Source: Candidatus Bathyarchaeia archaeon
GTDB taxonomy: Archaea > Thermoproteota > Bathyarchaeia > Bathyarchaeales > Bathycorpusculaceae
Length of the DNA stretch: 64,000 nt
Direction of reading: 5' to 3'
NCBI GenBank assembly: GCA_038883855.1
Contig: JAVZLH010000001.1
Location: 96,001 to 160,000 of the forward strand
Under the pieces are notes generated by a model. It made no database searches. It was not told the DNA's origin and saw nothing but the letters and a program-made list of their open reading frames with translations. The position numbers and the translations under genes are program-made. Of the stretch, positions 59,943-63,369 are shown piece after piece (within the stretch, counting starts at the first letter, position 1; every line of letters begins with the position of its first letter).

Positions 59943-60919
59943 CGTGGTGATATAGCATCCAATATTACCAGAAATATTATGGCACCAACAGGGATTCCGA
60001 TGTAAGTAAGTAAGTTCAGCATAAGCTCAGAGCTTAAACCCTTAAGGAATTCTCCTCCAAGCATGGATATAACTGCCAACATTATCACCAAGAGAAGCGG
60101 GCCAGTCAATAGAATAGATATGTAAAACTCCGACAGAATAGATAGGGTGTCGGAGAACTTCTTAAGACTTATTCTTTTCAGTTTCATAAATTGTTTAGAT
60201 TTTTCACGTAAATATACGGCTAAATTACCGCCAGAATGTATTGTTGAAATAAAACCTTCAAGTGTTTCTCGAAATACTTCCGATGAGGAACGTTTTGATA
60301 CTTCTTCAAGAGCTGAAATCACGTCTAAACCGAAAAGATTTATTTTTCTAACAACCTCCCTGGCTTCATAAGAAATCGCCAATGGCACACTCATGTTTGA
60401 AAGCGTATAGAAAATTTTTTCCGGTGAAACCCCAGAGCTGGCGAGAATGGCCATATAACCTGTTGTAAACGGCAACTCATCTTCCAACTCTCTCTTGAGC
60501 TTGTCCGCACGATAGATTGGGTAAAAGTAAAATCCCATGATTGTGAATGCGAAAGCAAACAATCCTCCACCGCAACCATAAAGAAGCGCTGGCAAAACTT
60601 GCGTGTGAAAGGCAAGAATCCATAGGGATGAAACAAGAACACCAGTTGCAATGGTGATCAGCATCGCGGAAAAAACAGTTAAACTGACATAAGCCTTGAA
60701 ATTAACTTTTATCCCAGACTTATGCAGATTTTGGTCCAAATCTCTAAAAAGGGGCAAAACTCGATCTATTCTACCGCCTAAAAGTCGAAATGCCAAAGAA
60801 TGTGGTTTATTAAGCTCTATACTAGGCTTTTTCTTAGTTGCTTCCATTTTTCCCTTAAACAATGCTTTGACGCGGATAACAAGTTTCTTGACTTTTTCCA
60901 GAACTTTGTTTTCACTCAT
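59936..60919 (-). CDS. Type IV pilus platform protein (TadB/TadC/GspF-like)
   Basis: ELPF..YMAILASSG..GLDVISAL..SS..F..I.SGG. Confidence 0.88.
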   Translation of the reverse strand: MSENKVLEKVKKLVIRVKALFKGKMEATKKKPSIELNKPHSLAFRLLGGRIDRVLPLFRDLDQNLHKSGIKVNFKAYVSLTVFSAMLITIATGVLVSSLWILAFHTQVLPALLYGCGGGLFAFAFTIMGFYFYPIYRADKLKRELEDELPFTTGYMAILASSGVSPEKIFYTLSNMSVPLAISYEAREVVRKINLFGLDVISALEEVSKRSSSEVFRETLEGFISTIHSGGNLAVYLREKSKQFMKLKRISLKKFSDTLSILSEFYISILLTGPLLLVIMLAVISMLGGEFLKGLSSELMLNLLTYIGIPVGAIIFLVILDAISPRW

Positions 60920-62487
60920 TTTAATCCCATTATAGCCTTTTGGAATATACGGCTTGGGTTAGAGTAGTATTCGCGAATTATGTTGGCGACATCCATGTAG
61001 CGGCGTATTCCAGTGTGCACCATCCATTCCAAAACTGTTTTTCTTCTCTTCAGCTCACGGGTAACATCATCTTCTGTTATGCCCATTTTTTTTATGTGAG
61101 CCTCTATAAACGGGCTTTTTCCAACAGGGATAAGTCTATCTTCTTTTGGATTCCATCGGAAAATTTCTTCTGTCAATATTTCTCTCGTTTTCTGGTCTAT
61201 ACCCGCAATTTCAGTAGTTGTGAGGGTTCGTCTCACCGGTTTTCCTTCCACTTCTGTTCTTGCTACAACCATTATCACGTCGGTCATAGCTATTAGTGAC
61301 CGTGGAATATTCATGGGTTCAGATTCCAACCTATTTATGACGGCTTCAACCGATTCTGCATGTATTGTGCTCATTCCAAGGTGACCTGTTGCCATGGCTT
61401 GAAAAAGTGTGTATGCTTCTTCGCCTCTAACCTCGCCGACAATTATGTAGTCTGGTCTTTGTCTGACGGCCGCTTTTAATAAGTCGAAAAGGGTTATTGT
61501 CCCGCTCTTTTTGTCTTCATGTCCAAAGCCTAGTCTTGCAACTGATGGTATCCAGTTTTCGTGTGGAAGGTTAAGTTCTTGTGTGTCTTCTACGCTCACT
61601 ATTTTCATTTCTGGCTTTATAAACATGGATAAACAGTTTAGCATCGTGGTTTTTCCCGCGGCCACGCCTCCTGCAACCAGCAGTGAGGCTCTGTTCTCTA
61701 TGATATACCATAGGTATGCAGCCATTTCGGATGAAACTGTTTTGAAAGCTATCAAGTCTGATATTGTTAATGGGTCGACTCTGAAGCGTCTAATGGTGAA
61801 TGTTGAGCCTCTACGTGTGACTTCATTTCCATAGGTTAATTGTACGCGACTGCCATCTGGAAGAGAAGCGTCCAAAATTGGCGAGGCTATAGAAATATTT
61901 TTTCCAGCAAGATATGCTAAGCGTATTATGAACGAGTTTAGTTCAGCTTCGTCCTTGAAAACTATATTTGTTGGCAAGGACTCGTAGAGCCTATGCCAAA
62001 CATATAAGGGTATGTTTACGCCATCCGCCGATATATCTTCGATTAGGTGATCCTTCATTAACGGGTCTATTTTCCCATAGCCTATGAAGTCTCTGATGAT
62101 GTAGTAAGTGAGTTTGTCAACGGCCTCTGGCGGAACTTTTATTCGATATTTCCTAATTATTTCCTTAGTTTTTTCTTTGAGGTAGTTTTCGGCTTTTTCT
62201 CTGGTTTCGATATCCTTTAAGTTTACATCTACTTCTTCCATTAAGAGCGTCTTTATTTCTTTGAGGAGGTTTTCCTCTTCTTTTTTCAGCGTGGGCTCTA
62301 TGACTTCGTAGACTATCTTTTGGGTTTCTGGGTTTTTTACTATGGCGGCGTAGACGTATGGTTCTTGTATTGGGTAGATTTCCCGGAATACTGTTGGTTT
62401 CTTTCCTTCTTCCTTTATTATTATGTCTACTCCTGACTCTTGCTTTTCCAAAGGGGTTAGCCTCCTGGTTTTCGTTGGATTTTTCAT
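60916..62487 (-). CDS. Type IV pilus assembly ATPase (TadA/VirB11/ArlI-like)
   Basis: GYGKIDPL.D..IEDIS, GGVAAGKTT, EDTQEL, RQRPDYIIVGEVRG, TGH...TIHA. Confidence 0.95.
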   Translation of the reverse strand: MKNPTKTRRLTPLEKQESGVDIIIKEEGKKPTVFREIYPIQEPYVYAAIVKNPETQKIVYEVIEPTLKKEEENLLKEIKTLLMEEVDVNLKDIETREKAENYLKEKTKEIIRKYRIKVPPEAVDKLTYYIIRDFIGYGKIDPLMKDHLIEDISADGVNIPLYVWHRLYESLPTNIVFKDEAELNSFIIRLAYLAGKNISIASPILDASLPDGSRVQLTYGNEVTRRGSTFTIRRFRVDPLTISDLIAFKTVSSEMAAYLWYIIENRASLLVAGGVAAGKTTMLNCLSMFIKPEMKIVSVEDTQELNLPHENWIPSVARLGFGHEDKKSGTITLFDLLKAAVRQRPDYIIVGEVRGEEAYTLFQAMATGHLGMSTIHAESVEAVINRLESEPMNIPRSLIAMTDVIMVVARTEVEGKPVRRTLTTTEIAGIDQKTREILTEEIFRWNPKEDRLIPVGKSPFIEAHIKKMGITEDDVTRELKRRKTVLEWMVHTGIRRYMDVANIIREYYSNPSRIFQKAIMGLK

Positions 62488-62670
62488 GCATGATATAATG
62501 TGTAGCGAGTCTTAATAAGTTATATGCACGCCTAATCTTTAGGAAATCTCTTGAACCCCAAAACATAAAAAATGCTAAGCGCATTCAAAACCTAAATTTG
62601 ATAACTTCAAAAGCGTAGCTATTATTGGCATTACCATGAGAATAGTGAACCGACGGGTACTCTTAACAGT

Positions 62671-62748
62671 TTACTTGTATCTTGCCCTTCTCTTTTGCCT
62701 CTTCTTTTTCTGCCGTCGCATCCTTTTCTTTTTCCATTTAGCGCGAAT
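62671..62748 (-). CDS. rpl41e: Ribosomal protein eL41 (eS32), 25 aa, probable ATT start (alternative GTG 62757); not in ORF track
   Basis: (I/M)RAKWKKKRMRRQKKKRQKRRARYK* versus eukaryotic [25 protein letters not shown]; SD-like GGGGTG upstream. Confidence 0.85.
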   Translation of the reverse strand: MRAKWKKKRMRRQKKKRQKRRARYK

Positions 62749-62769
62749 ATCCCGCACACCCCATAATTT

Positions 62770-63369
62770 TCATTCTATTGTGGCATGTCTACGTCGTAAA
62801 TCCTCCTCTGTTCGCCCCATTCGATGCATCAACTCCACAACCAAACTATCTAGAAAAACCATGCAGTTGTTCTCAAAAACACTTCCAAGAGGAGTTAGGG
62901 GCTCGCGTTCGCCAATAATTTGCCTTGCTAGGTAATCTTCTTCTTTCGGCCACCCGGTTTTTGTTCTTCCTTTAATCGTAACTATATGGTCAGCCATTTG
63001 ACCTAGTGGAGATTCTGGAAAGGATGTTATAGCAATTACTGTTGCTCCAATTTCCTTAGCGGCTGCGCCCGCGGTTAGAACCATCTTTGTGGCACCTGTT
63101 CCTGAAATTGCTATAAGTAAGTCTCCTTTTTCCGCTGCTGGCGTGATGGTTTCACCTAGAAAGTAGACGTTGAAGCCAAGGTTCATTAGTCGTAACGCAA
63201 AGGCTCTTGCAACAAACCCGCTTCTTCCCATGCCTACAATGAAGATTTTTTTATTTTTTGCTTCAAGTAGAAGTTTAATTAGTTGCTCAACCTCTTTCTC
63301 GTTTAACTCTTCAATACTTTTTTTGATTCCGGTGATGATTTCTTCTGCCGCCGCCTTCAGCCATTCCAA
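62770..63369 (-). CDS. hxlB: 6-phospho-3-hexuloisomerase (SIS domain)
   Basis: GMGRSG, FALRLMNLG, GETITP, ISGTG, PLGSVFE, RHATIE. Confidence 0.93.
   Translation of the reverse strand: MEWLKAAAEEIITGIKKSIEELNEKEVEQLIKLLLEAKNKKIFIVGMGRSGFVARAFALRLMNLGFNVYFLGETITPAAEKGDLLIAISGTGATKMVLTAGAAAKEIGATVIAITSFPESPLGQMADHIVTIKGRTKTGWPKEEDYLARQIIGEREPLTPLGSVFENNCMVFLDSLVVELMHRMGRTEEDLRRRHATIE

Follow-up and report, generated by a model that had tools for sequence, protein, structure and literature searches.

Eukaryotic eL41, also named eS32, forms bridge eB14 and occupies a small-subunit rRNA site between helices h27, h44 and h45, and in bacteria the AUU start codon of infC, the gene for initiation factor IF3, serves as an autoregulatory sensor of start-codon stringency. 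In the archaeon Pyrococcus abyssi, eL41 has been located on the 30S subunit near the P site, where it touches aIF2-gamma, and it possesses an N-terminal hook (PMC7005279). Its site lies between h27, h44 and h45, and its contacts include P-site-linked bases that carry modifications as well as aIF2-gamma (PMC7005279, PMC7531240). The distribution of eL41 among archaea has been called uncertain (PMC9932298, PMC9258230): Table 1 of a 2023 review tabulates it as absent from Bathyarchaeota and from all other TACK and Asgard groups (PMC9932298), and outside Thermococci it has been described as 'sparsely distributed ... or absent' (PMC9258230). Reviews of archaeal initiation give the start codons as AUG, GUG and UUG, and 'AUU' occurs 0 times in PMC7531240. 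Here we describe an eL41 gene that is probably initiated at AUU in a hot-spring archaeon of the Bathyarchaeia. It lies in a stretch of 64,000 nucleotides (nt), hereafter the window, to which all coordinates refer unless another contig is named; the genome that contains the window is denoted G000.

The gene is found on the minus strand directly behind hxlB, which encodes 6-phospho-3-hexuloisomerase. After the hxlB stop codon (TGA, 62772-62770) the minus strand reads AAA TTA TGG GGT GTG CGG GAT ATT CGC GCT AAA TGG ... AAG TAA, the gap between the two genes being 21 nt and the last sense codon of the second open reading frame (ORF) being AAG 62676-62674. Read from ATT, the 25 codons specify IRAKWKKKRMRRQKKKRQKRRARYK. 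The sole canonical in-frame start between the upstream stop and ATT is the GTG at 62757. An initial annotation, made from the sequence alone, had pointed to this minus-strand ORF of 25 codons after hxlB, to a GGGGTG 8 nt from the ATT and to GTG 62757, and was accurate in all of these details.

On sequence comparison, the ORF at 62748..62671 is eL41/eS32 in its short, 25-residue form, and both the gene and its family are secure. A profile built from an alignment of 22 orthologous cores (profile A1) was searched against the chains of the PDB and matched 25 distinct sequences at E up to 1, every one of them named L41, eL41 or eS32. The best match was the wheat chain 4v3p_Lq (E 3.2e-5, residues 2-25 of 25), and the best matches were eukaryotic 25-residue eL41 chains aligned over residues 2-25 of 25; the eL41 proteins of Pyrococcus and Thermococcus, which have 36-37 residues, were matched at E 0.04-0.3 over their residues 15-34. 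The Pfam model Ribosomal_L41 (PF05162, gathering cut-off 22.3 bits) gave a divided answer. Three of the six orthologues tested pass the cut-off (G038 at 30.2, G048 at 32.6 and G035 at 23.3 bits, all from other families, and 72-84% identical to the window peptide where identities are listed), two lie just below it (G034 at 21.3 and G044 at 21.7 bits) and one, G039, has no match, whereas the peptide of the window itself falls short, scoring 19.1 bits as a 28-mer, 19.7 as a 25-mer and 20.9 with ATT read as Met (E 3.6e-4 to 1.2e-3, alignment 1-25 or 2-25 of 25). The claim of the initial annotation that this is an eL41 of eukaryotic length is nonetheless upheld by the residue 2-25 matches to eukaryotic chains and by those orthologues that pass.

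To survey codon 1, eL41 loci were gathered from the same order, 144 in all after eight weak places (E >0.06) had been left out. Two spurious loci (L029 and L140) and one without the KW motif (L144) were then dropped, leaving 141 usable loci, in 137 of which the gene is exactly 25 codons plus a stop. We use ATH, or AUH in mRNA, for ATT, ATC and ATA (AUU, AUC and AUA). The codon is ATG at 69 loci, ATC at 30, ATT at 18, ATA at 16, TTG at six, and GTG and GCA at one each, giving 64 ATH loci; the GCA locus has an ATG two codons upstream, that is, a two-residue extension, and in every other locus codon 1 is one step from AUG. The window's own family, f1, has ATH at 42 of 46 loci, with ATG at three and TTG at one. 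ATH is likewise universal in f3 (5/5), f10 (3/3), f4 and f8 (1/1 each) and predominates in f7 (six ATH, two TTG and one ATG, besides the extension case); f6 is mixed (17 ATG, five ATC, two TTG), f11 has 40 ATG with one each of ATT, GTG and TTG, and f2, f5 and f12 have ATG throughout. When each codon is its own state, 23 changes are needed on a tree of hxlB from 67 syntenic loci, and only five of these are among ATH, ATG and TTG; hence exchanges among ATT, ATC and ATA (approximately 18) are common, and returns to ATG are rare. AUH at codon 1 is the normal state of the window's family and of several sister families, and not a lesion.

Nor is the ATT a sequencing error, because four public runs, belonging to three studies, contain contigs with zero mismatches to the window at this site; one of these runs may be the window's source sample. 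The initial annotation had considered that all orthologues might carry ATG here, leaving the ATT as a private mutation or an error; the 64 loci with ATT, ATC or ATA dispose of that. A second strain, dominant in run X2 (depth ~48) and also found in X7, reads GTG TAA GAT ATC at the eL41 start. Compared with the window, 62746 is changed from A to G on the plus strand, turning ATT into ATC, and 62752-62754 are changed such that the CGG after GTG becomes TAA; this variant is the arrangement of a genome of the same genus, G002. The hxlB gene of the second strain also differs from that of the window at many further positions.

The Shine-Dalgarno (SD) sequence in front of ATH is predicted to be stronger than that in front of ATG. 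We predicted duplex energies with 37 C parameters for positions -20 to -3 against the 16S tail of relatives, whose 3' end is ...GGATCACCTCCT. The median for ATH loci is -9.4 kcal/mol (interquartile range -10.4 to -9.2, n=64), compared to -6.2 kcal/mol (-7.6 to -4.8, n=69) for ATG loci, and the same difference holds within families: -9.4 against -6.3 in f1, -8.0 against -6.6 in f6, -10.0 against -7.4 in f7 and -13.9 against -6.2 in f11, where the lone ATT locus has a perfect GGAGGTG. Across the window's family a GGRG(N)GTG motif is conserved at the same distance. The aligned spacing of the window's ATT is 7 nt, and ATG counts in the genome peak at 4-7 nt after SD 5-mers. Otherwise the translation machinery appears unremarkable. 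A single initiator-type tRNA is present; it has A1:U72 and the anticodon CAT, and its anticodon stem contains three G-C pairs. A second initiator-like tRNA with another anticodon was sought, and there is none among the 31 tRNAs of this 85%-complete genome.

Similar starts were sought among other genes of G000, where ten candidates were checked by their Pfam domain boundaries. Two were clear, two fitted a canonical start, five were uninformative and one (L254) was undecided, since its Pfam match starts ahead of the first canonical start, but from position 21 of the profile. The clear cases are fdhD and a gene resembling gltB (glutamate-synthase-like), which seem, from these boundaries, to start at ATA and ATC respectively. 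Counted from the ATA, the FdhD/NarQ domain starts at residue 24, and the first ATG, GTG or TTG lies 43 codons downstream. At this position ATA is found in G000, G001, G007 and G009, GTG in G010 and ATG in G004 and G018; G005, G008, G011 and G012 have ATG at or near it, although some of the alignments begin at query residue 3-4 and both G011 and G012 have an extra in-frame ATG a few codons upstream. Predicted SD energies are -10.1 to -14.6 at the ATA loci of fdhD, against -4.6 to -7.9 at those with ATG or GTG. The gltB-like gene has an N-terminal 4Fe-4S domain at residues 11-60; its first canonical start lies 55 codons past the ATC, within or beyond that domain, and translation from there would forfeit the domain. 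Its orthologues have ATG (six), GTG (one) or ATA (one), and here those with ATG mostly have strong SDs too. Since both genes also seem to be AUH-started, AUH initiation behind a strong SD is a habit of the lineage, of which eL41 is the most consistent user. This is a class of start codon that archaeal reviews do not list, and in a clade where such codons usually begin a ribosomal protein gene and are used by at least two enzymes as well, gene callers confined to ATG, GTG and TTG will misplace N-termini and drop small genes. As a separate observation in G000, ACG codons that precede the first canonical start by at least 10 codons in long ORFs have a strong SD-like duplex ahead of them in 8 of 46 cases, compared to approximately 3% overall; this excess may be due to chance or may indicate another near-cognate start.

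The main competing explanation is that translation starts at GTG 62757, giving a 28-residue eL41 (MRDIRAKW...) in which ATT is an internal Ile codon. The GTG is in frame and belongs to the canonical starts of archaea; 36 of the 42 f1 loci with ATH retain it three codons upstream, so that these loci, and the window, could still yield a 28-residue product; Ile is preserved through all three synonymous codons, and the eL41 of Thermococcales carries an N-terminal extension (PMC7005279). Yet the GTG overlaps the SD and so has no SD of its own, and its reading frame is broken in 5 of the 42 loci. G002 has a TAA directly after GTG, G239 and G282 have a TAG there, and in G259 and G272 a 1-nt change of spacing puts GTG out of frame with the GGAG..GTG motif kept at its distance; furthermore, in G008, a relative with an ATG start, the homologous GGAGTGA holds an in-frame stop. 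Because stops and frame changes interrupt the frame of the GTG while the motif stays, GTG 62757, on this sequence evidence, in all likelihood belongs to the SD and is not a start codon. ATH also occurs without such a GTG in f3, f4, f6, f7, f10 and G141 of f11. In total, 21 of the 64 ATH loci, from seven families and including G002, lack any ATG, GTG or TTG in frame from the preceding stop to ATH, and in 14 of these the stop lies within two codons of it. An internal hydrophobic residue would permit GTH, CTN or TTA, but none of these is found at codon 1 in the 141 loci, where Val and Leu codons are only ever GTG and TTG. Synonymous differences are saturated, such that only the contrast in the ratio of nonsynonymous to synonymous differences (pN/pS) is meaningful. 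In ATH loci this ratio is 0.11 for codons 2-25 as a whole, with values of 0.08 in codons 2-9 and 0.12 in codons 10-25, against a near-neutral 0.86 for the two codons just upstream of ATH when they are treated as coding; by the contrast of 0.08 with 0.86, the boundary of protein-level selection is at codon 1. A start at GTG is thus improbable. The initial annotation had named a conserved extension from GTG as the alternative to its near-cognate start; the extension is not conserved, being interrupted within f1 and absent from other families, and the near-cognate start has held.

Two further explanations account for the locus without a dedicated AUH start. If ribosomes reinitiated after terminating on hxlB, the identity of the start would barely matter and ATH would be the tolerated decay of an ATG. 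A promoter has no obvious place in the 21-nt gap, hxlB immediately precedes eL41 in 67 of 141 loci, and coupling of this kind exists in archaea (PMC10666635). However, the gaps range from 11 to 63 nt, whereas overlaps or very short distances are described as necessary (PMC10666635); ATH is also found where hxlB is not upstream (G141, f4, f10 and part of f7), the SD of ATH loci is conserved and stronger, which favours SD-directed initiation, and fdhD and the gltB-like gene share the combination of ATH and SD. We consider reinitiation very unlikely. That the ORF is a chance frame rich in Lys and Arg, or a decaying pseudogene that has lost its ATG, can be given almost no credence. It is true that this is a very short ORF with low complexity, that the window peptide lies below the Pfam cut-off, that eL41 is dispensable in yeast (PMC9932298) and that it was not found in some genera of f1, for instance in none of 56 genomes of genus g17 with the window peptide as query. 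Against this, several genera share an identical peptide although synonymous change is saturated, pN/pS is low, the length is nearly invariant and the SD is conserved; conservation in 141 genomes, accompanied by plentiful synonymous differences, shows that the ORF is more than chance. Three other candidates were rejected. Internal Met10 is not the start, since in other families its place is taken by K, V, A, L, I or Q. Read-through fusion of hxlB with eL41 is disfavoured since, although the hxlB stop is in frame in the window, relatives show 27 gap lengths, most of which are not multiples of 3. A conserved coupling ORF of eight codons, from ATG 62764 to a stop inside eL41, fails since many relatives have TTG or CTG in place of its ATG, or lack it, and since its stop hinges on a GCT codon.

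The best-supported reading is therefore that AUU is the start of eL41 in this window, and from the sequence we hold it to be probable. Several points weigh against it. Our case for translation from AUH is drawn from sequence; no RNA runs holding the stretch are on record, two runs labelled metatranscriptomic being flagged 'probably DNA'. The window's genome is without a 16S gene, for which the tail of relatives had to stand in. The rank test of the SD difference (p 9e-18) ignores the relatedness of the loci, and on the hxlB tree SD and start codon afford only two or three independent contrasts, none of them reversed, with which significance is unattainable. Genome-wide, a strong SD precedes 2.6% of ATH codons ahead of the first canonical start, compared to 2.9% of other codons, and with extensions of at least 10 codons the values are 2.9% and 3.1%; since there is no enrichment before ATH, AUH starts are therefore a small minority, invisible to genome-wide SD statistics. 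The Pfam score of the window peptide and the retention of GTG in most f1 loci, both described above, belong to the same side of the balance.

Under initiation at AUU, eL41 would be a functional gene and the distal cistron behind hxlB, with which it is presumably co-transcribed. Pairing of GGGGUG with the 3' tail of 16S rRNA (...GGAUCACCUCCU) would hold the 30S subunit on the mRNA and so put AUU, 8 nt downstream, in the P site. There the ordinary initiator tRNA, with its CAU anticodon, would read AUU with two of three base pairs, and the product would be a 25-mer initiated with Met. The strength of the SD and the strength of the start codon may then trade off against each other, such that output is held in a set range; a trade-off of this kind fits the data.

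The features of the locus, and of the two genes elsewhere in the genome, are collected in Table 1. The identity of hxlB is supported by a score of 183.1 bits against TIGR03127 (RuMP_HxlB), for which the cut-off is 160. On the plus strand, a 99-codon ORF beginning with ATG (62636-62935) is antisense to eL41 and to the end of hxlB. F, L and C abound in its product, as is expected opposite a frame rich in K and R, and this ORF is likely to be a trap for gene callers. Approximately 100 nt past the eL41 stop, a T-rich run on the minus strand (cattttttatgttttgg, 62557-62573) could be, judging by its composition, an archaeal oligo-T terminator; the next ORF after it encodes a T2SSE-type ATPase (62487..60916).

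Table 1. Positions of the eL41 locus features in the window and of two further genes with candidate AUH starts
Feature	Position	Strand	Basis or remark
hxlB (6-phospho-3-hexuloisomerase), upstream cistron	62770..63369	minus	ORF; Pfam SIS E 3.6e-19; NCBIfam TIGR03127
Shine-Dalgarno-like GGGGTG	62757..62762	minus	8 nt (62756-62749) before ATT
In-frame GTG, rival start	62755..62757	minus	First G is the last G of GGGGTG
ATT, proposed eL41 initiation codon	62746..62748	minus	Codon 1 of the 25-codon ORF
eL41/eS32 coding sequence	62671..62748	minus	ATT and 24 sense codons, then TAA 62673-62671
fdhD, apparent ATA start behind AGAGGGGGC	G000:C5:34866-35648 (L246, L256), outside window	minus	Pfam boundary
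gltB-like (glutamate-synthase-like), apparent ATC start behind GAGGTGG	G000:C2:61511-63019 (L250, L281), outside window	plus	Pfam boundary

A search of the same order with the window peptide (E up to 1) gave eL41 matches in 145 of the 301 genomes covered. Outside the order they are very rare, with one among approximately 233 genomes of a class-wide sample (window peptide, E up to 0.01) and one among 354 genomes of a phylum-wide sample (profile A1), and both of these start with ATG. Within the window's family, the lack of matches in g17 is paralleled in genus g43, where a weak match was found in only one of 16 genomes. Three g17 genomes and one g43 genome are also without a close hxlB, and these genomes are larger, at 2-2.9 Mb; loss of the whole locus, or its divergence, may be responsible. 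Where hxlB is directly upstream of eL41, it is 11-63 nt away. The prediction that gene callers would miss this gene was borne out: none of eight exact peptides (seven of which are orthologues started with ATG) is present in a collection of 15 billion proteins, and the NCBIfam models give no match to eL41 peptides. No report of an AUH-started archaeal eL41 was found in the literature searched. A short eL41 of eukaryotic length in an order of Bathyarchaeia, when Bathyarchaeota are tabulated as lacking the protein, bears on the inventories that are used in arguments on the evolution of the ribosome between archaea and eukaryotes. Among individual loci, L198 is a contig of 2950 bases in a record titled Desulfonauticus sp., with the end of a Bathyarchaeia-type hxlB and a TTG-started eL41, and has probably been mis-binned in a bacterial metagenome-assembled genome. 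In genus g29, L028 (G030) and L238 (G057) have an eL41 with a two-residue N-terminal extension (ATG TAC GCA, MYARKKW...), and G030 is also without the usual stop and gains nine C-terminal residues.

Comparison with infC raises the idea that eL41 sets its own level through start-codon stringency, which would make it an archaeal counterpart of infC and IF3 operated by a ribosomal protein. Subunits without eL41 would be more permissive for AUH and would translate the eL41 mRNA, and subunits saturated with eL41 would reject AUH and turn synthesis off; the rarity of returns to ATG, despite some 18 exchanges within ATH, would then amount to selection for a non-AUG start. The likeness consists of a gene of the translation apparatus with a conserved AUU-type start behind an SD, near-cognate codons being conserved across the clade and at 42 of 46 loci in f1, and of a product located where start codons are checked (for eL41, PMC7005279 and PMC7531240). 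The differences are that all three AUH codons are used for eL41 and that the unusual start is not specific to the gene of the supposed regulator, given that the metabolic genes fdhD and gltB-like have ATH with an SD too. The regulatory role that the initial annotation had suggested is weakened as a gene-specific one because these two genes also seem to start at ATA and ATC, so that it would be less specific than was then supposed; autoregulation of this kind is an appealing idea but appears unlikely to us. The apparent trade-off between SD and start codon, together with the place that eL41 occupies at the checkpoint for start codons, poses a question about the control of fidelity in archaeal initiation.

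As to the protein itself, small basic peptides also occupy the eL41 site of the small subunit in actinobacteria (bS22) and mitochondria (mS38) (PMC7005279), and for these we claim no relationship in sequence. The eL41 of Thermococcales belongs to the same family and its helical core, at residues 15-34 of chains of 36-37 residues, aligns with the Bathyarchaeia form, which differs in being without the 14-residue N-terminal extension that contacts P-site nucleotides. The closer likeness is to eukaryotic eL41/eS32: both have 25 residues and align residue for residue from 2 to 25, both are a single basic stretch without an N-terminal hook, and RAKWKKKRMRR in the wheat chain 4v3p_Lq is identical to the Bathyarchaeia form in the alignment. 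A special phylogenetic tie to eukaryotes cannot be shown by 24 positions rich in K and R. The two differ at the C-terminus, which is RYK in the Bathyarchaeia form and RSK in eukaryotic eL41, and they differ in the gene, since that of the Bathyarchaeia is archaeal, situated behind hxlB, led by an SD and provided with an AUH start in 64 of 141 relatives.

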